From positions 7,036 through 71,035 of the forward strand of contig JBBPYN010000076.1 in the NCBI GenBank assembly GCA_038199875.1: 64,000 nucleotides of DNA. Reading direction: 5' to 3'. Within the stretch, counting starts at the first letter, position 1. Each line of letters begins with the position of its first letter. The stretch is from Rubrobacterales bacterium. GTDB taxonomy: Bacteria; Actinomycetota; Rubrobacteria; Rubrobacterales; Rubrobacteraceae. The notes beneath the pieces were generated by a model, which saw only the letters and a list, made by a program, of their open reading frames with translations, searched no databases and was not told the origin of the DNA. The translations under genes were made by a program, and so were the position numbers. This document shows, piece by piece, positions 6,056 through 56,585 of the stretch.

Positions 6056-7147
6056 CTAGGCTGCGGTCCGGTTTTTCAGATAAGCGTAGATAAACGCATC
6101 GAGGTCGCCGTCCAGCACCCTATCGACGTTCGCCGTCTCCTCGGCGGTACGGTGGTCCTTGACGAGCTTGTAAGGGTGGAGCACGTAGGACCGGATCTGG
6201 GACCCCCATTCGATCTCGGCCTTCTCCCCGCTCTGGGCGGCGATCTCCTGCTCACGTTTCTCACGCTCGAGCTCGAAGAGGCGCGCCCTGAGGACCCGCA
6301 TCGCCACCTCGCGGTTCTGGTGTTGGCTCCGCTCGTTCTGGCACTGCGCCACTATGCCCGTGGGGAGATGTGTGATTCTGACCGCGGAGTCGGTCTTGTT
6401 GACGTGTTGGCCGCCAGCCCCCGAAGCCCTGTAGGTGTCCACCTTGAGGTCTTTCTCATCTATCTCTACCTCGACGGCCTCGCCCACCACGGGAGCGACG
6501 GCGACGGAGGCGAAGCTCGTGTGCCTCCTCGCGCCGGCGTCGAAGGGGCTGATCCTGACGAGGCGATGCACCCCGCGCTCGGCAGACAACAGCCCGAAGG
6601 CGTACTCCCCAGAGACGGTGAAGGTGGCGCTCTTTATGCCAGCCTCCTCACCCTCGGTGTACTCAATGACCTCGAGCCCGAAACCACGCCGCTCGGCCCA
6701 GCGCCTGTACATCCTGGCCAGCATCTCGGCCCAGTCCTGCGAGTCGACCCCGCCCGCGCCTGAGTTGATGGTCAATATGGCGTCGCCGTCGTCGTACTCG
6801 CCGGAGAAGAGCCTTGCCACCTCCTGCTCCTCGAGTACCCGCTCGACCCGCCGCAACTCCTCCTGGACTTCGGAGAGTAGTTTCCTGTCCTCCTCGGCCA
6901 GCTCTAGTAGCTCCTCGGAATCCGTGAGGCTTCCCCTTAGCCCGGCGAGGAGTTCGATCCTACCCTGCACGCGCGAGAAGCGGGCGGATACAGCCTTGGC
7001 CTCCTCGGGGTCGTCCCAGAAACCGGGCCGACTCATCTCGTCGCCCAGCTCCCCCGCCTCGCCCCGCAGCCCCTCCACGTCGAAGAACGCCTCGAGCTCG
7101 GCGAGGCGTTCTTCCAACTTGGAGGTCTTGTCATTTGACTCTGTCAC
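6056..7147 (-). CDS. prfB: Peptide chain release factor 2 (no programmed frameshift)
   Basis: SPF tripeptide (RISPFD) and GGQ motif. GTG at 7147 overlaps the secA TAG (TAGTG). Confidence 0.96.
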   Translation of the reverse strand: MTESNDKTSKLEERLAELEAFFDVEGLRGEAGELGDEMSRPGFWDDPEEAKAVSARFSRVQGRIELLAGLRGSLTDSEELLELAEEDRKLLSEVQEELRRVERVLEEQEVARLFSGEYDDGDAILTINSGAGGVDSQDWAEMLARMYRRWAERRGFGLEVIEYTEGEEAGIKSATFTVSGEYAFGLLSAERGVHRLVRISPFDAGARRHTSFASVAVAPVVGEAVEVEIDEKDLKVDTYRASGAGGQHVNKTDSAVRITHLPTGIVAQCQNERSQHQNREVAMRVLRARLFELEREKREQEIAAQSGEKAEIEWGSQIRSYVLHPYKLVKDHRTAEETANVDRVLDGDLDAFIYAYLKNRTAA

Positions 7148-13820: not shown

Positions 13821-15274
13821 TAGCTACCCCCTATCACGGCCAGGATGGCGTCGACGGCCGGGCGTTGGATGCTTATGAGCAAGGCTGGGAAGACGCCGAG
13901 CACGACGAGCAGCAAGGCGAGCGGCACCAGGGAGGCCATCTCGGCCGGCCCCGCGTCGTCTATCTGCTCGTAGGCAGGGCTTTCGATGGGACCGAAGATC
14001 ACACGCGCCAGCATGTAAAGCAGGTACATGGCTGAGAGTATGATCCCGAACGACGCGAGCACCCCTTGAACCGGGAAAGTCGCGTACCCGCCCATGATGC
14101 TCATGAATTCGGAGACGAAGACGGCGAGCCCCGGAAGCCCCATCGCGGCGAGCGCGCCGAGGGCGAGGAGCCCACCGGCCCACGGCATCCTGGCAGCGAG
14201 CCCCCCGAGCTCGCTGATGCGGCGCGTCCCAGTCCTTGCCGCTATCACGCCGACAAGGATAAAGAGCAGCGCAGAGTAGAGACCGTGCGAGACCTGCTGG
14301 AAGACAGCACCGTTCAGGCCAACGGCGTTACTCGAGGCGGCCCCGAGCAGGATGAAGCCAAGGGTTCCAATTGATGAGTAGGCGACGAGCGCCTTCAGGT
14401 CTGGTTGAAGGAACGCGACGAACGACCCGTAGATAATGTTGATAACCCCGAAAGCGGCGAGGTAAGGGAGAAAAGGCTCGACGCCCTGCGGCAGAAGCGG
14501 GATCGCCACCTTGATAAGGCCGTACGTACCCAGCTTCGGCAGGACCCCCGAGAGAAGCACGTTGGTCGAGGTCGGGCTCGAGACGTACACGTCCAGAAGC
14601 CAACTGTGCAGCGGCACCGCGGGAACCTTGATCAGCAGCCCGAACAGTATCGGGGCCGCAACCGCGACCTGCGCCGCCCGAGAGAGGCCGCCCCCGCCCC
14701 CGAGTGAACTTATGGAGTAGGTGTCGGCGAGGATGCCGAAGGCAAGGAAGCCTGCCAGCATCACCGTCGAGCCGAGGAACGTGTAGATGAAGAACTTGAT
14801 CGCGGCAGGACGACGGTTCTCATCGCCCCAGACGCCGACGAGCAGATACATCGGGATCAGCGTGATCTCGAAGAACACGTAGAACAGGATCAGGTCCTGC
14901 GCAGCGAAGACGCCGAGCATCCCAACCTCGGCGACGAAGAGCGCGGCGAAGTACTGCCTGAGGTTACGGTTCACGTCCCCCGAAGCCACGATCGCTATGA
15001 CGGTGAGGAAGGTGGAGAGGAAGAACATCCCGAACCCGAGCCCGTCGAGCCCGACCCTGTAGCCTATGTTGAGCGACCGTATCCAGGTCAGGTCCTGAGT
15101 GAGGGCCGCGACGCCCAGATCATCGCCGAAGGCGAAGTAGATGTAGATCGCGAGGATCAGGGGCACGGCAGCCACCCCGAGGGCGGCGTAGCGCACGAGG
15201 CGCTCATCGTCGGGCAGGAGAAGCATGAGTACAGCGCCGAGAAGCGGGATCAGGATGGTCACCGTCGTTATCAC
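13820..15274 (-). CDS. nuoM: Complex I subunit M
   Basis: LFYVFFEITLIPMY, IKVPAVPLHSWL, KLGTYG, LPGLAVFVSEF. GTG at 15274 overlaps the nuoL TGA. Confidence 0.95.
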   Translation of the reverse strand: MITTVTILIPLLGAVLMLLLPDDERLVRYAALGVAAVPLILAIYIYFAFGDDLGVAALTQDLTWIRSLNIGYRVGLDGLGFGMFFLSTFLTVIAIVASGDVNRNLRQYFAALFVAEVGMLGVFAAQDLILFYVFFEITLIPMYLLVGVWGDENRRPAAIKFFIYTFLGSTVMLAGFLAFGILADTYSISSLGGGGGLSRAAQVAVAAPILFGLLIKVPAVPLHSWLLDVYVSSPTSTNVLLSGVLPKLGTYGLIKVAIPLLPQGVEPFLPYLAAFGVINIIYGSFVAFLQPDLKALVAYSSIGTLGFILLGAASSNAVGLNGAVFQQVSHGLYSALLFILVGVIAARTGTRRISELGGLAARMPWAGGLLALGALAAMGLPGLAVFVSEFMSIMGGYATFPVQGVLASFGIILSAMYLLYMLARVIFGPIESPAYEQIDDAGPAEMASLVPLALLLVVLGVFPALLISIQRPAVDAILAVIGGS

Positions 15275-17253
15275 AGGCGGGCCCCCACGGCGAAGGCGGC
15301 GATGGTTATCAGGGCTATGAGCCCGACGACGATCACCGCGTACTGCGCCCCTACGATTACCGCGATGATCAAGACGCTCAGCAGGATGAACAGGGCGTAG
15401 TTCTGGACCCCGCCGCTCTGCAGCCGCTGAAGAAGTCCCCCCGTCCCGAGCGTCCCGCGTCCGACCTCGCCGACCAGACCGCCGATGACGTTCCGGTCGA
15501 AGCCACGGGTAGCTCGTCCGAGCCACATCGCGAACCGCACGAACGTCGCGCCGTAGAGATCGTCGAAGTACCAGCCCTTGTCCAGGAACTTGTGAAGCCA
15601 CGAGAACCGTCTGGCGAGCGCCCCTGCCTGCTCCGGCCTCGCGACGTAGAGCGCGTAGGCCAGGCCAATCCCAAGGACCGCGACGAGGACCGAGACCCCG
15701 CCTAGCGCGTAGCTAAAGCCGTGCTCTTCGACGTTGAGCGTCGAGACGGCGAACTCGCTGGGATGCACGAACTCGGCGAAGTAATCAGGGATCGGGAGCC
15801 CGAACCCCTCTGGTATGCCCACCCACCCGCTCACGATAGATAGGAAGGCAAGGAGCATCATCGGGCCCGTCATTATCCCTGGCGACTCCGCCGCCTCCCT
15901 CGCCCCATCGGTACGAGGTTCGCCGGTAAAGGCGAGGAAGATAGCGCGGAAGATGTAGAAAGCCGTGAGGAACACCGTCAAGAGCGCCATGCCGAACAAG
16001 ACGTAGTAGTGCTCCTCGTAGGCCGAGGCGACGATGGCGTCCTTGGACCAGAACCCGGAGAAGGGGATGATCCCGGAGAGCGAGAGTCCCGCTATGACCA
16101 CCGCCACGAAGGTAAGAGGCATCTTCCGCCTGAGCCCCCCCATCTCGAAGAGGTTGTAGGAGTCCATCGCGTAGATGATGCTGCCGGCGCACAGGAAGAG
16201 GAGCGCCTTGAAGAAGGCGTGGTTGTAGAGGTGGAAGATGCCTGCTGAGTAAGAACCGATCCCGAGGCCTAGCATCATGTACCCGAGCTGGGAGACGGTG
16301 GAGTAGGCGATCACACGTTTGATGTCCTTCTTGACCAGCGCCATGGTCGCCGCCATCAGCGCGGTAAAGCCGCCGATGTAGGCGACGACGAGCATGGCCG
16401 TTGGGCTCTGCACGAAGATGTCGTAAGTGCGAGCAACGAGGTAGACACCAGCTGCGACCATGGTCGCCGCGTGGATCAGGGCGCTAACCGGCGTCGGGCC
16501 CTCCATCGCGTCGGGGAGCCATACGTGCAAGGGGAACTGCGCGCTCTTGCCTACGGCGCCGATGAAGACGAGGATCACGGCCGCCGTGAACAGGGAGCCG
16601 CCGATAAACCCGGCCTGGGCCGCCTCAGAGATGTCCGAGAAGGCTGTCGAGCCCGTCGTCGCCCAGAAGATGATGATCCCGACGAACAGCGCGGCATCCC
16701 CGACCCTGGTAACAACAAAGGCCTTGAGCGCGGCGTCGCGGGCAGAGGGCTTCTCGAACCAGTGCCCGACAAGCAGGTACGAGCACAGGCCGACGAGCTC
16801 CCAGAAGATGTAGAGTTGGATGAAGTTCGGGGCAAGCACGAGCCCGAGCATCGAGGCCGTAAACAGGTTGAGCACCGCGTAGAACCAGGCGAAGCGTTTG
16901 TCGCCCTCCATGAAAGCCCCTGAGTAGAGCTGGATCATGAGGCTCACGAAGCTCACCACCACGAGCATCACCGCGGCGAGCCCGTCGATAAGAACGCCCA
17001 TCGAGAACGAACCGCCCGCGCCGAGGTCTATCCAGTTCACGGAGAACTCTATTGGCGCCCCGCCGCCTGGGACTATCCCGGCCACGAACAGAAGGGCGAA
17101 GACGGAGAAGACGAGGGAGATAGTTACCCCGAGGATGGCCACGTACTGGGCGTTCTCCTTCAGGAGGCGTCCGAAGAAGACCAGCACGAGGAATACCAGC
17201 GCGGGGAGCGCCGGAATCGCCGTTATGATCAGCTGTTGGCCTACTGTCTGCAC
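15271..17253 (-). CDS. nuoL: Complex I subunit L
   Basis: WELVGLCSYLLVGHW, GKSAQFPLHVWLPDAMEGPTPVSALIHAATMVAAG, HAFFKALLFL. Confidence 0.96.
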   Translation of the reverse strand: MQTVGQQLIITAIPALPALVFLVLVFFGRLLKENAQYVAILGVTISLVFSVFALLFVAGIVPGGGAPIEFSVNWIDLGAGGSFSMGVLIDGLAAVMLVVVSFVSLMIQLYSGAFMEGDKRFAWFYAVLNLFTASMLGLVLAPNFIQLYIFWELVGLCSYLLVGHWFEKPSARDAALKAFVVTRVGDAALFVGIIIFWATTGSTAFSDISEAAQAGFIGGSLFTAAVILVFIGAVGKSAQFPLHVWLPDAMEGPTPVSALIHAATMVAAGVYLVARTYDIFVQSPTAMLVVAYIGGFTALMAATMALVKKDIKRVIAYSTVSQLGYMMLGLGIGSYSAGIFHLYNHAFFKALLFLCAGSIIYAMDSYNLFEMGGLRRKMPLTFVAVVIAGLSLSGIIPFSGFWSKDAIVASAYEEHYYVLFGMALLTVFLTAFYIFRAIFLAFTGEPRTDGAREAAESPGIMTGPMMLLAFLSIVSGWVGIPEGFGLPIPDYFAEFVHPSEFAVSTLNVEEHGFSYALGGVSVLVAVLGIGLAYALYVARPEQAGALARRFSWLHKFLDKGWYFDDLYGATFVRFAMWLGRATRGFDRNVIGGLVGEVGRGTLGTGGLLQRLQSGGVQNYALFILLSVLIIAVIVGAQYAVIVVGLIALITIAAFAVGARL

Positions 17254-48920: not shown

Positions 48921-49393
48921 TACCAGTGGTATTTCTCGTTGCGGTGTATTTTTGCTGCGCGGTAGAGTTGTTCGAGGAGGACAACCCTGGCGAGGGCGTG
49001 TGGGAGGGTGATCTCCCCGAGGGACCAGAGTTCCTGGGATCTTTGCAATACGTCGGGGGAGAGGCCAAGGGGGCCACCGATTATGAAGGCCACGTGGCTG
49101 CGGCCAGAGACGCCCAGGTCTTCGAGCTTGCGGGCGATTCTTTCTGATGGGTATTGCTTGCCTCGCTCCCTTTCCAGGGAGACGACGTACGCTTGTGTGG
49201 GGAGGCACTTCAGGATGCGTTTGCCTTCCTTGGAGAGCACTTCCTGGCGGGGGCGGCAGTTTATGTCTTCTTCGGGGACTTCGATCACGTCGATGTGGAA
49301 ATAGCGGCGAAGTCGGTTTGTGTAGTCTTCGGAGCCCTTGGCGGTCCAACCCTTCGGCTTTCCGACGCAGACCAGGGTGCAGCGGCTTATCAC
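48920..49393 (-). CDS. rlmH: 23S rRNA pseudouridine-1915 N3-methyltransferase
   Basis: VCVGKPK, FIIGGPLGL, SLGEITLPHALARVVLLEQLYRA...YHW; GTGA overlap with the upstream gene. Confidence 0.92.
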   Translation of the reverse strand: MISRCTLVCVGKPKGWTAKGSEDYTNRLRRYFHIDVIEVPEEDINCRPRQEVLSKEGKRILKCLPTQAYVVSLERERGKQYPSERIARKLEDLGVSGRSHVAFIIGGPLGLSPDVLQRSQELWSLGEITLPHALARVVLLEQLYRAAKIHRNEKYHW

Positions 49394-50214
49394 TCGATGC
49401 CGAAGAGTTGTCCTGCGGGGTCCTTCTCGTCGTAGTGGTAGACGTGTTCGGTGGCTTGAAGCGGAGATCCTACTTCGATCCAGGGCGTGGGATGGCCGGC
49501 GATCGCAGCCCTTACCCTGACGCCGCCGTGACCGGCCTCCCTGAGCGCCCCGTGAACGGTTCCGCAGGCGCGGGTCGGGGAGTTGTTGGTCTTCGAAAGA
49601 TGGGCGAGGACGAGGTCTTTGAGCCCATGAGGGGCGAGCGCGACGGCCGCATCGGCCGCCTGCCGGTTGGAGAGGTGGCCGTACCGGGAGGAGATCCGAC
49701 GTTTCAAGTTCGCCGAGTAAGGGCCCCGCCTCAGCCAGTCCCCTTCGTGGTTCGCTTCGAGGACCACCGCCTCGGCCCCGCGCATGCACCTCAGAACCTC
49801 GATACCGGCCTCACCCAGGTCCGTCGCCATCGCCACCGCGTTCTCCGCGTCGGCGACACGTACGCCGTAGGTCGAGGAGTCGTGCGGGACCTCGAAGAAG
49901 GTCGCCGTAAGGCCGCCGACCGTGCACACCTCTTCAGTGGCCACCGTGTTCGCGCCGAGGGACTCACCGACGCCTGGCGCGGCGTAGACGGCTATGCCGT
50001 GGTCGCGGACCAGGGAGCGTACGCCGCACGTGTGGTCGGCGTGTCCGTGGGTCAGGATGATGGCTCCCACATCGTCGATGTCTCTGCCGATACGGTCGAG
50101 GAGTACCTCTATGCGCCGTCGCGAGAGGCCGGCGTCGACCAGAAGGCCGCCCGAGCCCGACTCCATGTAGGTCGCATTGCCCGAGCTTCCGCTCGAGAGA
50201 ACACTCAGCCGCAA
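49390..50214 (-). CDS. MBL-fold metallohydrolase (YycJ/WalJ-like)
   Basis: SGSSGNATY, LVDAG, THGHADH, EANHE, AHLSKTNN. Confidence 0.88.
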   Translation of the reverse strand: MRLSVLSSGSSGNATYMESGSGGLLVDAGLSRRRIEVLLDRIGRDIDDVGAIILTHGHADHTCGVRSLVRDHGIAVYAAPGVGESLGANTVATEEVCTVGGLTATFFEVPHDSSTYGVRVADAENAVAMATDLGEAGIEVLRCMRGAEAVVLEANHEGDWLRRGPYSANLKRRISSRYGHLSNRQAADAAVALAPHGLKDLVLAHLSKTNNSPTRACGTVHGALREAGHGGVRVRAAIAGHPTPWIEVGSPLQATEHVYHYDEKDPAGQLFGIE

Positions 50215-50289: not shown

Positions 50290-51111
50290 TCATGATCTCG
50301 TTCCGACCAGCTCTCCCTGGACTATGATGCGTTGCTTGTAGTCGGGCAGGGTGCAGGTCTGCAGCGAGACGAGCGATTTGCCTTCTGTAGGTTCCATAAC
50401 CCCGACGTTGTCCGGGTCGACGAGCATCTGGTCGGTCACCCGGTACTCGTACTTCGTCCCCTCCGTGTCCTCCAGCAGGATCTCATCGCCCTCGCCCAAC
50501 TGGTCCAGATAGTAGAAAACGAGGTAAGAGTTCGTTCCTTCGTACCCCAGTCGATGACCGGCGATGTAGGTGTTCGCGCCCTTCTGCCAGGGGAAGCCCG
50601 TGGCCGGGATGTGGACGGTGGATTTCTTGAGCTTCTCGTCCTTGACCGAGTTGTAGACGGCCACGTCAGCGAGGCCCAGGTTCGGGACGGTCAGGTAGAG
50701 GGTCTTGTCGTCAGGTCCCCCAGGGTCCCTTCCGAAGTTGAAGGGCCTGACGGCCGGTATCGCTCCCGCCGAAGACCCTGAGGCCTCGGACCCATAATCG
50801 TCCGAACCCTCCTTGTGCCAGTCCTCGTACTTCGGTGGATCCTTCTTGAGGTCTTTCTTCGAGAGGATGTCTTTGGGGAGAACGGCATCTACGGTCTTCC
50901 CCTGGTCGGCCTTCTCCCTGGCCGCCTGGTTCTCTTTATGAACCATGTCTTCACGCACGGTCGATGCCCCGCCGCCGTCATCCGGCCCTTTGCCATTCGC
51001 TCCGGCGGACTGTGGCTGGCCTGCGCAGGCCGTCAGCAGGACAAACAAGAGCGGGGCGAGTACCGCCCCGCTCAACGAGAAGAGACGCAGGTTCAAGCCT
51101 TGTCTCTCCAT
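50290..51111 (-). CDS. Sortase (class D/E-like) with lipoprotein signal
   Basis: Lipobox LLTAC; catalytic triad IAGHR, LQTCT, QRIIV. Confidence 0.85.
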   Translation of the reverse strand: MERQGLNLRLFSLSGAVLAPLLFVLLTACAGQPQSAGANGKGPDDGGGASTVREDMVHKENQAAREKADQGKTVDAVLPKDILSKKDLKKDPPKYEDWHKEGSDDYGSEASGSSAGAIPAVRPFNFGRDPGGPDDKTLYLTVPNLGLADVAVYNSVKDEKLKKSTVHIPATGFPWQKGANTYIAGHRLGYEGTNSYLVFYYLDQLGEGDEILLEDTEGTKYEYRVTDQMLVDPDNVGVMEPTEGKSLVSLQTCTLPDYKQRIIVQGELVGTRS

Positions 51112-51125
51112 GCCTCGCTCAAGCT

Positions 51126-51815
51126 CTAGACGTGTCCCAGACGGTACATTTCCGCCGGGGAGAGTTTCGGGCCACCGGTGCTCAGCATCTCTCCGCCCAG
51201 GAACGGTGCGACCGCCGCCGAGACCTCGTCCAGGGTCAGAGCCTCGGGGAAGGCCTCGTTGGCGTAAGGAACGACGCCGAGCAACATGTTGATCGCCACC
51301 ACGTGCTCGCCCTCGACGCCCTCGATGCTCCCAGCCGCCGCCAGGATGTCGGGGCTTGAGATCAGGGGCGCGGCGCCAAGGTAGGCGCCCACGCCGACGG
51401 GCTCGAAGGTGGCTGCCAGGTCCAGTACGGAGGCCTGGCTCGAGAACGCGTCTGCAGGGAAGGTCAAGGTCGGTTTCGACACCGGGGTCGCGCCCACGCT
51501 CTCAATCAAGCCTACGAGGGCGTCAACGTGCTGCGACTCGTGGCTCGCGAGGTTCTCGACGACGCCGAGGGCGTCGCCGGAGAGAACGCCGGCGTCAAGC
51601 GCCCTGGCGTAGAAGTCTGCCTCCAGATACTCCAGCGAGAGGGCGAAGTTCGCGATGTCCACGTCGTCGGTCTTCGCCGATGCCTTGCCCGCGACGAGCA
51701 TCGAGGCCGCGGTCGCGCCTGCGCCCGCTACAGCGAGAGACTTGAAGAAGTCCCTCCTGGTCCTTGGCCGGGCGAACTCGTGCGCGCCGGGAACGTTGAT
51801 CGTGTGCTTCTCCAT
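51126..51815 (-). CDS. Tat-exported ferritin-like domain protein (Ferritin_2 / PCC13-62-like) #2
   Basis: TRRDFFK signal; DIANFALSLEYLEADFY, HESQH, FEPVGVGAY, EGEH. Confidence 0.85.
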   Translation of the reverse strand: MEKHTINVPGAHEFARPRTRRDFFKSLAVAGAGATAASMLVAGKASAKTDDVDIANFALSLEYLEADFYARALDAGVLSGDALGVVENLASHESQHVDALVGLIESVGATPVSKPTLTFPADAFSSQASVLDLAATFEPVGVGAYLGAAPLISSPDILAAAGSIEGVEGEHVVAINMLLGVVPYANEAFPEALTLDEVSAAVAPFLGGEMLSTGGPKLSPAEMYRLGHV

Positions 51816-51830
51816 GTTTTTGTCTCCTCC

Positions 51831-52490
51831 CTAACCGGTGATGCCGAACGGTTTCACGGCCGCCTGCACCTTCGGCAGCGGCAGGGCTACCTCGAAGGCG
51901 AGGTCGTTCGGCGGGTTGATGAGGTTGAGTATGTTGATCGCGCAGCGGTGCTGGCACTCGGCGTTGTGGATCGAAATAGCCGCCGCAAGTATGTCCTTGC
52001 TCTCGAGCGCCGGTGCCGCGCCCTGATACGCGCCGATACCGACGGGCTCGAAAGTGGCCGCCAGCTCGAGGAAGGTCTTCGCATCCCCGAAAGTACCGCT
52101 GGGGAAGGTGAACTCAGGCGTCGCAGGCACCTCGGCCCCTAGCTCGCCAAGGGTCGACGCGATGGCATCAGCATGTGCCATCTCGTGGTCGCGAATAGCC
52201 ACTATCTGCTCGAGGAACGCGTCTGCGAAGAGGCCGGCGTTGACGCCCTCCGCGTAGAACGTGCCTTCCAACAGTTCGAGCTGGTACGCGAACTGTAGTA
52301 TCGCCGCGTCACCCAGCCCCTCGTAGGTCTTGTACTCTCCCTCCGCCTCGGCGCGGCGGACGGCTACGCCGAAGCCACCGATACCCATCGCGGAGAGCGC
52401 GGCACCTGTCCACGCTGCCGTCTTCAGGAAGTTTCGCCGCGAGGTCTCCCGATCCAGACCGATCAGGACGCGGCTCTCTACTCCACTCAT
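51831..52490 (-). CDS. Tat-exported ferritin-like domain protein (Ferritin_2 / PCC13-62-like) #1
   Basis: SRRNFLK signal ending AEA; LELLEGTFY, HEMAH, FEPVGIGAY, ECQH. Confidence 0.85.
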   Translation of the reverse strand: MSGVESRVLIGLDRETSRRNFLKTAAWTGAALSAMGIGGFGVAVRRAEAEGEYKTYEGLGDAAILQFAYQLELLEGTFYAEGVNAGLFADAFLEQIVAIRDHEMAHADAIASTLGELGAEVPATPEFTFPSGTFGDAKTFLELAATFEPVGIGAYQGAAPALESKDILAAAISIHNAECQHRCAINILNLINPPNDLAFEVALPLPKVQAAVKPFGITG

Positions 52491-52555
52491 CTACACTTGC
52501 CTCCCTTGTTCTCAGCCTGAACTCAGGCCGTTTGCCGGTACCTTCTCTCCAGCAT

Positions 52556-52581
52556 TACGGACATCGGTGGACCCTGGATCA
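52556..52581 (-). promoter_or_regulatory. Putative ECF promoter for the ferritin-ferritin-sortase operon
   Basis: Minus strand reads TGATCC-N16-CGTA, the same as the motif upstream of the sigma gene. Confidence 0.7.
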
Positions 52582-52761
52582 CCCCCATTGCCGCATGTCT
52601 CGACCTCGAACACGCATGTTTCATTCCAACGACCGAGCGTTTCTCCCGGAAACATGACGCAATCAACATTAACAGTCTTAAGCAAAACTCGCAACATGTG
52701 TGTTAGATCTTACACTGCCGCCTACTTCTTTCGACCCTTCTGCTCGGTAGCTCCGCGGAGG

Positions 52762-52787
52762 TGATCCGTCTGGGCAACATTACCGTA
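52762..52787 (+). promoter_or_regulatory. Putative autoregulatory ECF promoter of the sigma gene
   Basis: TGATCC-gtctgggcaacattac-CGTA; an overlapping TAGAAT (52786-91) sits 6 nt before the ATG. Confidence 0.7.
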
Positions 52788-52797
52788 GAATGAGGGT

Positions 52798-53385
52798 ATG
52801 GCGGATCGGGGACGACAGTATCTTATTCTTGCGGACGAGGATTTAATCTCCCTCGTGGAGACTGGCGACGCCGACGCGTTCGCGACACTCTACGACCGTC
52901 ACAGTCGTGCGGCCTTCTCTCTGGCTTACAGAATGATGGGGGAGCGCCAGGCGTCCGAAGACCTGGCCCAGGACGCGTTTCTGAAGGTCTGGCGGGGCGC
53001 GGGTAGCTATCGCGCTGAGCGTGGCAGCGTACGGCCCTGGATCCTCTCTATCGTCCACAACCGCGGCATAGATCAGCTCCGCTCCCACGCGAGCCGGCGC
53101 AGGACGCAGGATAAGATCGAGGCAACAGCCCCGCGCTCCCAACCGAGCGAAGCCTTCGCGGAGACCTGGCGCAACTCGCAGCGCGACCAGGTCAGGGAGG
53201 CGATGGGCACCCTCCCGTCCGAGCAGCTTAAGATACTGGAGCTTGCGTACTTCTCGGGGTATACACACGTCGAGATATCCGAGCTACTAAGCCTGCCCCT
53301 CGGGACGGTAAAGGGCCGGATGCGATTGGGGTTGAAGAAGATCAGGGACTACTTCGAATCGAGAGGCGCGGCGGTGCCGAGATGA
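52798..53385 (+). CDS. ECF RNA polymerase sigma factor (SigK-like)
   Basis: DAFATLYDRH, AEDLAQD-like region 2, WILSIVHNRGID, LPLGTVKGRMRLGL. Confidence 0.92.
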   Translation: MADRGRQYLILADEDLISLVETGDADAFATLYDRHSRAAFSLAYRMMGERQASEDLAQDAFLKVWRGAGSYRAERGSVRPWILSIVHNRGIDQLRSHASRRRTQDKIEATAPRSQPSEAFAETWRNSQRDQVREAMGTLPSEQLKILELAYFSGYTHVEISELLSLPLGTVKGRMRLGLKKIRDYFESRGAAVPR

Positions 53386-54164
53386 GCGAGATGAACAACG
53401 AGATCTTCGAAGACCTCAAAGACGCCTACGTCCTCGACGCCCTGCCAGAGGAGGAGAGGCGCACCTTCGAGGATTATCTCGCGGCCCACCCGGAGCGTCA
53501 GGCCGAGGTAGACGAGTTCGGCGCGGTCGCCGGCCTGCTCGCCTTCGCCCCGCACGAACAGGAACCTTCGCCGCAGCTCCGCAGCAGGGTCATGGAGATC
53601 GTGGAGTCCGAGGCGACGCCGAGGCGCGCCGGGCGAGAGTCCGTGTTCGCGAGGTTCTGGGAGAATCTCGGCGCAAGAGGTCTCGCCCTCGGTGCGGCGG
53701 CCCTGCTCGTGGTCGGCCTGCTTTCGTGGAACTTGCTGTTGCAGGACCAGGTAGGCGAACTGCAAGGCGAGGTTCAGAACGCCCAGGGCCAGGTGGATGA
53801 CCTGCAGGGCCAGGTTCAGGATGCGCAGGCCCAACGCCAGGTCAAGCAAAGCCCGACGATCGAACTCGAAGGGGCGTGGGCTGACCAGGGCGCAGACGCC
53901 GAAGTAGCCTCCATAAACGAGGACAGGACCATCCTGGTGGCCGACGACCTGCCTTCGGTGCCAGACGACCGGACATGCCAGATCTGGGTCATAAGGGGCG
54001 ACTCGCCGCCCTCCCCCAGCGGCCTCTTCCAACCCAACGGGAACATGACGGCGACACCCATTACGAACCCCATAAAGAAGGCCGACACCATAGCGGTGAC
54101 CGTCGAGCCGGCAGGAGGTTCTGACCAGCCGACGACCGAACCCGTGCTCCAGGCCAAACTATAG
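53382..54164 (+). CDS. Anti-sigma factor, RskA-like (ASD + TM + coiled coil + RskA C-terminal domain)
   Basis: AYVLDAL..EE..FE, TM segment, CQIW.I, IAVTVEPAGGSDQPT; ATGA-coupled to the sigma gene. Confidence 0.88.
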   Translation: MSEMNNEIFEDLKDAYVLDALPEEERRTFEDYLAAHPERQAEVDEFGAVAGLLAFAPHEQEPSPQLRSRVMEIVESEATPRRAGRESVFARFWENLGARGLALGAAALLVVGLLSWNLLLQDQVGELQGEVQNAQGQVDDLQGQVQDAQAQRQVKQSPTIELEGAWADQGADAEVASINEDRTILVADDLPSVPDDRTCQIWVIRGDSPPSPSGLFQPNGNMTATPITNPIKKADTIAVTVEPAGGSDQPTTEPVLQAKL

Positions 54165-54188: not shown

Positions 54189-54400
54189 GCGGTAAACGGC
54201 GGTTCCGGGCATTGATTTTCAGGCTACGGGATCAGGACGTGCGGGTGCAGTCCCGCCTCGATGGTGCGTAGGTCCTCAAAGACTCTAGACGAACCTTCGA
54301 ACGGCCCTGACCTTCGTACTTGCGAGGCGTTTATTTTCCGCGGGCGCGGGTAGTAGTAATTCAAAGGTAAGTGCGAAAGGGCAAAGATAAAGGAGGGTAT

Positions 54401-54610
54401 ATGTCTGTAGCACGGATAACCGAACTGAGCGCGACCTCGGATACTAGCTTCGAGGACGCCATCCAGCAGGCCGTAACCCGTGCCACGTCGACGTTGCGCG
54501 GCGTCGAAGGGGCCTGGATCAAGGACCAGAACGTGCTGATCGAGAACGGTAGCATCACAGGCTATAAGGTGAACGTAGAGGTCACCTTCGTTCTGGAAAA
54601 AGGCCAGTAG
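54401..54610 (+). CDS. Dodecin (flavin-binding)
   Basis: SFEDAIQQAVTRATSTLRGVEGAWIKDQ...YKVNVEVTFVL; AGGAGG RBS. Confidence 0.92.
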   Translation: MSVARITELSATSDTSFEDAIQQAVTRATSTLRGVEGAWIKDQNVLIENGSITGYKVNVEVTFVLEKGQ

Positions 54611-55814: not shown

Positions 55815-55838
55815 GAGGGCGGTTCGCGAACCGCTCTA
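55815..55838. repeat. REP-like palindrome between convergent genes
   Basis: GAGGGCGGTTCGCGAACCGCTCTA. Confidence 0.65.
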
Positions 55839-56585
55839 GTTGCTGACGTTCGGATCGTCTTCTTCGTAGATTTCCTCGCGTATCACGCGGCGACGGATCT
55901 TGGTGCGCCCGCCCTCCTGGAAGGTTTCGGTCTCCTCGGTATGGCGCGTAGTCGGCGCCTCACCAGCTGCCTCTTCAGCGGGGGAGCCGGTGCCTGCGAT
56001 GGAAGATTCGCGTTCGGAAGACTCCCCGGTATCCATGCGATCATCTCTGCCCGTGGGCTCACCCGAGCCCCCGTACTCGGGTACGTTCCAGGAGGGCTCG
56101 CCTTCGGTAGCCGACTCCCCGCGTTCCCTGGAATCCACAGTGGAACGATCCTCGTACTCCTTCGTGTCATCCCCGTCATCGTAGTCGAGCGACTCCTGGT
56201 CTACGTCGCTGGATCTCGTCTCTGAGTACGCGCCGTAGCCGGCCCCTGAGGCATCGAGTGATTCGAGGCCGAAGTAGCTGCGGATGCGGTCCTCGTAGTC
56301 GCGGGTGATGTCTTCGTCGTCGTCGAAGCTCGGCGCACTCTTCACACGATCTTTGGACTCGGAGACCTCTATGCTCCTTTCGCCCCCGTTCACGCGTACT
56401 ATGTCCATGGGGATCAGGGTTGACTTCATGCCCAAAAACCCCATCTTGACGCCGATGTATTCTTCCCTGTCCGTCTCGTCGACGAAGAGGTCGTCGACCT
56501 TCCCGATCTTCTCACCCTGGTTGTCGTAGACCTTGTAGTCCTCGTACTTCTCTTCTAGCTCTCTCAGCCTATCTTCGCTCGCCAC
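55836..56585 (-). CDS. PRC-barrel domain protein with acidic low-complexity C-terminus
   Basis: YKVYDNQGEKIGKVDDLFVDE...YIGVKMGFLG...IPMD...KDRVKSAP. Confidence 0.85.
   Translation of the reverse strand: MASEDRLRELEEKYEDYKVYDNQGEKIGKVDDLFVDETDREEYIGVKMGFLGMKSTLIPMDIVRVNGGERSIEVSESKDRVKSAPSFDDDEDITRDYEDRIRSYFGLESLDASGAGYGAYSETRSSDVDQESLDYDDGDDTKEYEDRSTVDSRERGESATEGEPSWNVPEYGGSGEPTGRDDRMDTGESSERESSIAGTGSPAEEAAGEAPTTRHTEETETFQEGGRTKIRRRVIREEIYEEDDPNVSN

Follow-up and report, generated by a model that had tools for sequence, protein, structure and literature searches.

The stretch of DNA analyzed here (64,000 nucleotides of a Rubrobacterales bacterium, positions 7,036 to 71,035 of contig JBBPYN010000076.1 in assembly GCA_038199875.1; referred to below as the window) appears to encode a two-promoter module at positions 50290 to 54164. 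An extracytoplasmic function (ECF) sigma factor would drive both its own operon, shared with an RskA-type anti-sigma factor, and a divergent operon, fer1-fer2-srt, for two PF13668 (Ferritin_2) proteins and a sortase. From the sequence, we put the probability of this reading at roughly 0.78. The sigma gene lies at 52798-53385(+) and encodes 195 amino acids (aa); its end overlaps the start of rskA (53382-54164[+]; 260 aa) by 4 nt (ATGA). On the other strand, fer1 (51831-52490[-]; 219 aa), fer2 (51126-51815[-]; 229 aa), and srt (50290-51111[-]; 273 aa) follow one another with gaps of 14 to 15 nt. The G+C content of the window is 63%, and its nearest relatives are Rubrobacteraceae metagenome-assembled genomes (MAGs) from soil, rock, and biocrust.

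Both operons are preceded by the motif TGATCC-N16-CGTA. The copy ahead of the sigma gene, P_sig (TGATCCGTCTGGGCAACATTACCGTA; 52762-52787[+]), has its -35 element TGATCC at 52762-52767 and, after a 16-nt spacer, its -10 element CGTA at 52784-52787, ending 10 nt before the sigma ATG. The copy ahead of fer1, P_fer (TGATCCAGGGTCCACCGATGTCCGTA; 52581-52556[-]), has its -35 element at 52581-52576 and its -10 element at 52559-52556, with the fer1 ATG 66 nt downstream. The two promoters are divergent, and their -35 hexamers are 180 bp apart. A first-pass annotation of this DNA had reported these two copies with equal spacing, and both proved to be exact matches. It had seen no further complete copy, but a third exact match is present at 16577-16552(-). 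The three matches in the window compare with 0.13 expected (100 dinucleotide shuffles, none of which gave three). The third copy falls inside a 660-aa NuoL-like open reading frame (ORF) (15271-17253; Proton_antipo_M match), where it encodes VILVFIGAVGKS. When a weight matrix trained solely on the fer promoters of other genomes was run over the window, P_fer ranked first (26.4 bits) and P_sig second (19.4 bits). The third copy scored 12.1 bits, within the range of the maxima of shuffled windows (7 to 19), and this score, together with its position in the middle of an ORF, ruled it out as a regulon member. Only P_sig and P_fer were retained within the window.

We then compared related loci in Rubrobacteraceae. 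With the sigma protein as query, 41 loci (L001 to L041) were fetched from species-representative genomes, and a further 80 were fetched from metagenomes with fer2, so that their sampling was independent of sigma. The resulting 121 loci (709 kb) contained 122 matches to the relaxed expression TGATC[CT]-N16-CGTA, against about 1.6 expected by arithmetic from base frequencies, and all except 11 lay directly upstream of fer1 or sigma genes. The motif preceded 52 of the 56 fer1 genes that had enough upstream sequence (45 to 201 nt from the start, mode 63 to 73) and 56 of 66 sigma genes, the great majority with CGTA ending 10 nt ahead of the start codon; it always pointed toward the gene. Three of the motif-less fer1 genes are decayed copies (in L003 and L056, both frameshifted, and in L009, with one fer gene left), and the fourth is the second tandem copy in L106. 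Most of the sigma genes lacking the motif belong to a diverged paralogue found elsewhere (L015, L017, L022, L027, L031, and L033). Information content was restricted to (G)TGATCC(R)(G) and (Y)(C)CGTA(G/A); neither the 16-nt spacer nor the flanks were conserved. Judged from these alignments, the pattern is the one expected of a sigma-specific -35/-10 pair and not of a dyad operator. Exact motif copies (CTGATCCC..ATGGA.ATCGTC.GCGTA) were also seen in the PRC-barrel coding sequence of five loci (L005, L006, L010, L012, and L053). We rejected these as promoters, as they look like a by-product of coding ...TLIPMDIVRVNE...; in the PRC-barrel gene of the window (55836-56585[-]), the corresponding site reads CGTG.

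Could the two matches in the window simply be chance occurrences in a GC-rich intergenic region? The motif specifies just 10 bases, and the copy in nuoL is evidently fortuitous. The chance expectation is nevertheless only 0.13 per window, and the position of the motif is shared by more than 100 independent loci and extends to a second phylum, so the comparative data have already refuted this idea and we give it practically no credence.

The geometry of the motif resembles that of a tested ECF promoter. Pecf18_up1700, an ECF18 promoter tested by Rhodius et al. in 2013, reads TGCATCC-N15-CGGTAAT, that is, CATCC-N17-GTAA, and the promoters here read GATCC-N17-GTA(G/A). Because an ECF34 sigma factor also activates Pecf18_up1700 (PMC3817407 supplement), this type of promoter recognition seems to be common to the ECF18/19/34 clade. 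The first-pass annotation had likened the motif to RpoT/SigK-type (ECF18/19) promoters; the geometry agrees with that of the ECF18 promoter, and the ECF19 example, Pecf19_up1315, has no obvious TGATCC...CGTA.

The extended -10 region of the sigma promoters is CGTAGAAT, in which TAGAAT is followed after 6 nt by ATG. However the -10 element is counted, transcription would start on the sigma AUG or no more than about 2 nt from it, and the sigma-rskA mRNA is presumably leaderless or nearly so; the GAGGG that precedes the ATG lies too near to it to function as a ribosome-binding site. The fer1 gene has a Shine-Dalgarno sequence (GGGAGG) 9 nt ahead of its ATG, in a putative 5' leader of about 60 nt (52491-52549[-]) that also holds a small GC-rich hairpin (GGCCTGA/TCAGGCC). 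A hairpin 8 to 15 nt 5' of the Shine-Dalgarno sequence recurs in many loci with differing stems (GGCCTGA/TCAGGCC, GGGGT/ACCCC, and GGGTC/GACCC) and has a possible role in mRNA stability or regulation.

The position of TAGAAT invites another explanation, namely, that the motif is the operator of an unlinked regulator or that these are housekeeping-sigma promoters with TAGAAT as a leaderless -10 element. A TANNNT hexamer 6 nt before ATG, as found in CGTAGAAT, is the classic actinobacterial leaderless arrangement, and one RNA contig spans the sigma -35 element. The fer promoters, however, have TGATCC-N16-CGTA with no consistent TANNNT behind it, the 19-nt spacer between TTGATC and TAGAAT is too long for a housekeeping promoter, and a sigma-70 consensus scan of the sigma-fer1 intergenic region gave no match. 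The motif is also unlike a dyad operator, being asymmetric and gene directed, with a fixed 16-nt spacer of unconserved content; it has the geometry of the tested ECF18 promoter and accompanies an ECF/RskA pair in two phyla. We therefore consider this explanation quite improbable. The first-pass proposal of matching promoters for the sigma gene itself and the ferritin-type operon agrees with their conservation over the 121 loci and across phyla, and both promoters are very likely served by the adjacent ECF sigma factor.

The sigma factor consists of sigma2 and sigma4 domains only and contains no cysteine. Its scores for Sigma70_r2 (68.9 bits), r4_2 (45.7 bits), and Sigma70_ECF (34 bits) all exceed the cutoffs, as does that for TIGR02937 (97.7 versus 42.9), and by these matches it is assigned to the ECF (group 4) sigma-70 factors. 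Its best NCBIfam match is SigK (PRK09646), at 147 bits against a cutoff of 226, and its best match in the PDB is SigK of Mycobacterium tuberculosis (4NQW; E = 1.6e-24). Identity is 31% to M. tuberculosis SigK, 34% to an ECF19 sigma factor of S. coelicolor, 36% to ECF34, and 30% to ECF18; membership is plausible at the level of the ECF18/19/34/214 clade only. The pair had been annotated as SigK/RskA-like. An ECF sigma factor with an RskA-type partner is indeed what we found, but placement in the SigK subfamily was not supported: of five SigK-defining features examined, three are absent (the subfamily score, the Cys pair, and an mpt83/mpt70-type fasciclin neighbor). The Cys133/Cys183 pair of SigK is present in 94% of ECF18 and 56% of ECF19 members (PMC7509140). 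The genes around the sigma gene encode Ferritin_2, sortase, MBL-fold, and dodecin proteins, with no fasciclin-type mpt83/mpt70 gene. The term "SigK-like" is acceptable here only in the sense of "ECF18/19/34-clade-like with an RskA partner."

The anti-sigma factor matches RskA_C (77.5 bits versus 29.4) and NCBIfam NF052375 (137.9 versus 100), and its match to RskA_N is weak (19.6, under the cutoff of 27). It is laid out as a cytoplasmic N-terminal anti-sigma domain, one hydrophobic span (ARGLALGAAALLVVGLLSWNLLL; approximately residues 99 to 118, read off the sequence), a Q/G/V-rich repeat, and an extracytoplasmic RskA_C domain. The Q/G/V/D-rich repeat (QDQVGELQGEVQNAQGQVDDLQGQVQDAQAQ) lies just outside the membrane span (residues ~120 to 152; 53730-53850[+]). 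It has a coiled-coil-like look and a weak Csm1_N match, and its length differs among orthologues.

The regulon extends beyond this locus in relatives, and the earlier description of it as self-contained had to be given up: there, tatA genes and a Ferritin_2 paralogue have the motif in front of them as well, and the fer1-fer2-srt cassette is missing from many sigma loci and present elsewhere. Across L001 to L041, the cassette between the MBL gene and the sigma gene is polymorphic. Many loci have it in full, among them L029 of the cultured species Rubrobacter taiwanensis; only sortase fragments are left in L007, L008, L010, and L023, pseudogenes represent it in L003, and it is absent from L002, L005, L006, L011 to L013, L016, and L019. 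The sigma gene, rskA, and P_sig are intact in all of these cases. In L010, a relic P_fer was seen beside the sortase fragment. Cassettes situated away from the sigma gene keep P_fer, both behind an isochorismatase-like gene (L120) and behind a pair of tatA-family genes (L055, L059, L050, and L051). The motif itself precedes tatA genes in L055 and L059 (16-nt spacer), in L022 (17-nt spacer), and in L021, an independent locus. In L022, it also precedes a 34%-identical Ferritin_2 paralogue that adjoins a second pair, sigma'/rskA'.

This second pair, present in L022 and L015, is 77 to 82% identical to the sigma factor of the window, and its own -35 element is degenerate. At least in L022, it is flanked by the Ferritin_2 paralogue and then tatA-tatA2; in L055 and L059, fer1-fer2-srt comes after tatA-tatA2. 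Both sigma loci can occur in one genome, as L008 and L022 belong to a single MAG. No tatA gene was found within the 64-kb window. As read from these gene orders and motif positions, the family regulon comprises at least sigma-rskA, at least one Ferritin_2 operon, and components of the twin-arginine translocation (Tat) system, spread over one or two loci.

A similar arrangement was found in Deinococcota, where we collected seven genomic contexts (75.5 kb in all) starting from DRB0118 of Deinococcus radiodurans. In a D. deserti-like genome (L124), lgt-tatC-tatA is divergent from tatA-sigma-RskA_C-Ferritin_2, and D. metalli (L128) has the same arrangement. RskA-sigma-tatA is divergent from Ferritin_2 in D. 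multiflagellatus (L127), and Meiothermus (L123) has Ferritin_2-sigma-RskA_C. Calidithermus (L126) has Ferritin_2-tatA-tatC with no sigma gene within 5 kb, and Ferritin_2 stands alone in D. maricopensis (L125) and on the megaplasmid of D. radiodurans R1 (L122), where DRB0118 lies among insertion sequence elements and transposase genes. The motif TGATCC-N16-C[GA]TA occurs seven times in these 75.5 kb, against 0.13 expected, and all seven copies are upstream of Ferritin_2, tatA-sigma-rskA, or tatA-tatC; one-mismatch copies occupy two of the remaining operon slots. It was not found in the three loci without a sigma gene (L122, L125, and L126). DRB0118 has neither a sigma/RskA pair nor the motif close by, which sets it apart from its orthologues in other Deinococcus species. 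The shared anti-sigma type, promoter, spacing, and target set would be hard to explain without a common module. The first-pass annotation had suggested checking whether the neighborhood is conserved; beyond the Rubrobacter relatives, Deinococcus and Meiothermus have sigma-RskA, tatA, and Ferritin_2 behind TGATCC-N16-C(G/A)TA.

The Deinococcota Ferritin_2 proteins begin with a Tat signal followed by a lipobox (...LSGC... or ...ISGC...) and are predicted to be Tat lipoproteins kept at the surface. The gene lgt (prolipoprotein diacylglyceryl transferase) adjoins tatC-tatA in L124 and L128, in agreement with these Tat-plus-lipobox N termini. On the evidence of gene content and promoters, the Rubrobacter module is a version of one shared with Deinococcota, in which Ferritin_2 would be anchored as a Tat lipoprotein and not via a sortase. 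Our literature search found no link between DRB0118 and a sigma factor. The D. geothermalis ECF pair Dgeo_0606/0607 has been described as uncharacterized. No account of this regulon turned up in the literature that could be searched; the neighborhood may already be listed on the group pages of the ECF Hub.

The proteins encoded by fer1 and fer2 are 40% identical to each other and match Ferritin_2 at 120.9 and 137.5 bits, respectively (cutoff, 24.7); neither matches the Pfam Ferritin family. Twin-arginine motifs are present in both (SRRNFLK in fer1, 52422-52442; TRRDFFK in fer2, 51741-51761) and conserved in orthologues, and fer1 also matches the Tat signal model TIGR01409 (20.2 versus 16.7). 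With the signal peptide of the sortase, these signals uphold the earlier prediction that all three proteins are exported. The metal-ligand columns E, ExxH, E, ExxH are invariant (E62, E65, E93, H96, E138, E168, and H171). A sequence search of the PDB returned RvY_06210 as the only solved relative, besides a Dps-like chain at an E value of 0.53. We also modeled fer2 with AlphaFold (AF2) from alignment A2 (predicted local distance difference test scores of 80 to 97 in the core). The best Foldseek match of this model was again tardigrade RvFeMP-1 (RvY_06210; 8WAI/8KCE), with an E value of 8e-6 and a template modeling score of 0.60; bacterioferritin, Dps, and ferritin chains had E values of at least 5e-3, about 1,000-fold weaker.

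By sequence, and for fer2 by predicted structure as well, fer1 and fer2 belong to the PF13668/FeMP-type family of dinuclear-metal proteins and not to the true ferritin, bacterioferritin, or Dps families. The first-pass label of ferritin or di-iron proteins is unsupported, since the nearest structure and the only characterized members of PF13668 are metabolite phosphatases dependent on Zn, Mg, Ni, or Co. RvFeMP-1 binds Zn and Mg and has peak activity with Ni or Co (Kato et al. 2024, PMC11616004). Sugar phosphates and nucleotides, damaged ones included, serve as substrates for dephosphorylation by both RvFeMP-1 and DRB0118, and metabolite phosphatase activity is established only for RvFeMP-1, RvFeMP-2, and DRB0118 (PMC11616004). 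PF13668 also covers the plant desiccation protein PCC13-62, and inactivation of DRB0118 reduces desiccation survival (PMC11616004). The fer2 protein is 30% identical to DRB0118, and by this homology a role of the operon in desiccation is plausible.

The srt product matches Pfam Sortase (PF04203) at 98.8 bits (cutoff, 26.6). Its catalytic domain (residues 140 to 269) contains the motif TLQTC, kept as SLQTCT in orthologues, and its best PDB match is the class C sortase 8T28. All sortase class models scored below their cutoffs of 160 to 165 (class C, 60.8 bits; class E, 52.7 bits; class D, 43.9 bits). The N-terminal signal peptide ends in a lipobox, LTAC (51025-51036), and leads into about 100 aa of disordered linker. 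By eye, most orthologues have a cysteine placed as in a lipobox at this point, and a strict lipobox expression matched only 16 of 58. The sortase is predicted from these features to be lipid anchored through a disordered tether of about 100 residues.

A candidate substrate is encoded next to it. Near its C terminus (...APFLGGEMLSTGGPKLS...), fer2 carries a motif resembling a sortase signal, MLSTGG (residues 210 to 215; 51171-51188[-]), and the 14 aa behind it form a hydrophilic tail that contains no hydrophobic anchor; fer1 ends in ...APFGITG. Almost all of about 95 fer2 orthologues (54 to 93% identity) end in APF-x(3-5)-M-[LMP]-x-[TS]-G-G, with variants such as MLSTGG, MMETGG, MPATGG, and LPKSGG. 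The tail after the motif is 3 to 25 aa long, free in length and sequence, and never hydrophobic, and T213 and G214 are invariant in alignment A2. The sole fer2 orthologue without the motif (L014) likewise lacks a sortase gene, although 4.3 kb of downstream sequence is available, and the distant Ferritin_2 paralogue in L022 has neither motif nor sortase. An NCBIfam search of fer2 that included the LPXTG-anchor models gave no match.

The sigma factor and promoters may be as described and the sortase still not act on fer2; the motif could be a propeptide, a Tat quality-control tag, or a partner-binding tail, with the sortase anchoring proteins encoded elsewhere. Such a view would account for the lack of either a hydrophobic anchor or a typical charged stop-transfer tail after the motif, for the failure of the LPXTG-anchor models to recognize fer2, and for a sortase that fits no defined class. 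Yet the motif is LPXTG-like (MPATGG, LPKSGG, and MLSTGG) and kept in the orthologues while the tail behind it varies freely, the motif and the sortase gene are missing together from L014, and srt lies 14 nt from fer2 and is joined to it in almost every locus. The homologous cargo of Deinococcota, moreover, is surface anchored by a lipobox, which argues that surface retention is the selected property. We find the alternative doubtful. Motif and sortase covary, their genes are adjacent, and the Deinococcota homologues are predicted to be anchored as lipoproteins; together, these make fer2 a probable sortase substrate and surface retention the probable purpose. The signal is noncanonical, without a membrane-spanning segment; candidate acceptors are a wall bridge or a lysine of fer1.

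Within the signal-peptide codons of srt (codons 13 to 24; 51073-51039[-]), a perfect 10-bp GC-rich hairpin (-23 kcal/mol) is followed by the U-rich tract UUGUUUGU. A hairpin with a T-rich tail was present at this position in 58 of 78 loci, compared with 31 of 400 random windows. Our first count of base pairs was set aside as circular, since its sequences had been selected as hairpins. RNAalifold on a gapless alignment of 20 diverse sequences gave a 10-bp consensus stem in which 4 of 10 pairs showed compensatory changes, a count that is indicative only, as the aligned sequences were preselected as hairpin forming. One stem pair is G-C in 8 sequences and A-U in 12, changing the peptide from Gly to Arg and from Pro to Leu. 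An Rfam scan matched no family; its only hit, ncS16 at an E value of 0.15, lies on the hairpin. We propose that the hairpin is a leaky intrinsic terminator or a 3'-end stabilizer that would give a high ratio of substrate to enzyme mRNA.

RNA data came from five biocrust metatranscriptomes, as unstranded assembled contigs of relatives 85 to 95% alike. Contig depth was typically 100 to 2,500 over fer1 and fer2 (lower in some bins), tens to hundreds over sigma, about 1 to 90 over the conserved sortase domain, 0 to 20 over the MBL gene, and zero over 52513-52759. This profile is compatible with P_fer, P_sig, and an internal srt terminator, but contig depth is a poor proxy for expression.

Several observations weigh against the two-promoter module as we describe it. 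The region CGTAGAAT, with TAGAAT-N6-ATG, also fits a leaderless promoter of the housekeeping sigma factor. The zero depth between the operons could reflect divergence, as the RNA is unstranded and from organisms only 85 to 95% similar, and a 325-nt contig (depth, 61) starts at about 52755, some 7 nt upstream of the sigma -35 element. Either a transcript or contaminating DNA thus covers P_sig in a relative, and there may be a basal upstream promoter. Many related sigma loci have no cassette; because so many have lost it, the sigma factor must have other roles or targets there. The fer2 C terminus has no hydrophobic segment of the kind found in canonical sorting signals, and the sortase scores below every class model. 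Finally, the sigma factor is only 30 to 35% identical to the Deinococcota sigma factors and 30 to 36% identical to ECF18/19/34 references, so that orthology across phyla is not evident from sequence.

The flanking genes fall outside the fer/sigma unit. An MBL-fold hydrolase gene (49390-50214) lies beyond srt, and a dodecin gene (54371-54610[+]) lies downstream of rskA; both are kept in relatives with or without the fer cassette, and the dodecin gene is syntenic in most related loci that reach that far downstream. In the biocrust metatranscriptomes, dodecin contigs of relatives had depths of about 12,800 (X28) and 3,700 (X29). Because these far exceed the depths of sigma or rskA, dodecin is transcribed separately; its transcript is very abundant in these two data sets, and its depth is unrelated to that of sigma.

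Taken together, the two-promoter module might work as follows. RskA_C would sense a signal outside the membrane, perhaps drying, rewetting, or envelope damage, and the sigma factor would be released, probably by proteolysis, as with M. tuberculosis RskA. RNA polymerase carrying the sigma factor would produce, at P_sig, a leaderless sigma-rskA mRNA, providing positive feedback with a built-in brake, and, at P_fer, the fer1-fer2-srt transcript. The hairpin and U tract at the start of srt would keep sortase mRNA below substrate mRNA. The paralogous dinuclear-metal proteins would be exported folded through Tat, after which the lipoprotein sortase would recognize M-[LMP]-x-T-G-G in fer2 and fix the protein to the wall or to a partner. 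A broader proposal, which we advance tentatively and rate at somewhat less than even odds, is that an ancient module of Rubrobacteria and Deinococcota uses an ECF sigma/RskA switch and its own Tat components to display PF13668 proteins on the surface, as lipoproteins in Deinococcota and, in Rubrobacter, through a sortase with a previously undescribed M-x-x-T-G-G signal lacking a transmembrane segment.

Resurrection plants, tardigrades, and Deinococcus all induce PF13668 proteins upon drying. The locus offers a concrete circuit for these proteins, with a named sigma/anti-sigma pair and a promoter signature of 10 bases that could be used to predict the regulon genome-wide in two phyla tolerant of radiation and desiccation. 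It also provides evidence that PF13668 cargo may act outside the cytoplasm, held at the cell surface, a site that fits poorly with a purely cytosolic role in "nucleotide house-cleaning." For ECF biology, autoregulation plus an adjacent target is an ordinary case. What goes beyond the routine is the candidate cross-phylum sigma-Tat-Ferritin_2 module, the candidate noncanonical, anchor-less sortase signal, and the structured RNA element in signal-peptide codons.

Among known systems, the SigK-RskA pair of M. tuberculosis (ECF19) is similar in having an ECF sigma factor followed by a single-pass, RskA_C-type anti-sigma factor, and in its mpt83-sigK-rskA cassette, too, the sigma factor drives both itself and a neighboring gene whose product is exported or on the surface; SigK binding sites are conserved across genera (PMC7509140). 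The sigma factor described here differs from SigK in its lack of cysteines, its 31% identity, and its seemingly leaderless gene, and its predicted targets are PF13668 proteins and a sortase (in relatives, Tat genes as well) instead of the fasciclin-type MPT70/83. Compared with the ECF18 promoter Pecf18_up1700, the -35 element is GATCC instead of CATCC and the -10 element is CGTA (CATA in Deinococcus). The loci of Deinococcus and Meiothermus (L123, L124, L127, and L128) share the ECF sigma factor, RskA_C, Ferritin_2, TatA, and the promoter type, but they have a single Ferritin_2 gene (about 300 to 320 aa) with a Tat signal and lipobox and no sortase; their tatA is joined to the sigma operon with tatC-lgt adjacent, and the -10 element in Deinococcus is CATA. 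Like DRB0118, RvFeMP-1 (8KCE), and PCC13-62, the fer proteins belong to PF13668, with E/ExxH ligands and N-terminal export signals. Here, however, there are two short paralogues without a C-terminal extension or IgG-like domain, and fer2 carries a sortase-type signal. Class C, E, and F sortases with a dedicated neighboring substrate also pair a sortase domain containing a TLxTC cysteine with an adjacent protein bearing an xPxTG-like motif. The pair in the window departs from these LPXTG systems in its M-[LMP]-x-T-G-G motif, short hydrophilic tail, folded Tat cargo, and sortase predicted to be lipid anchored.

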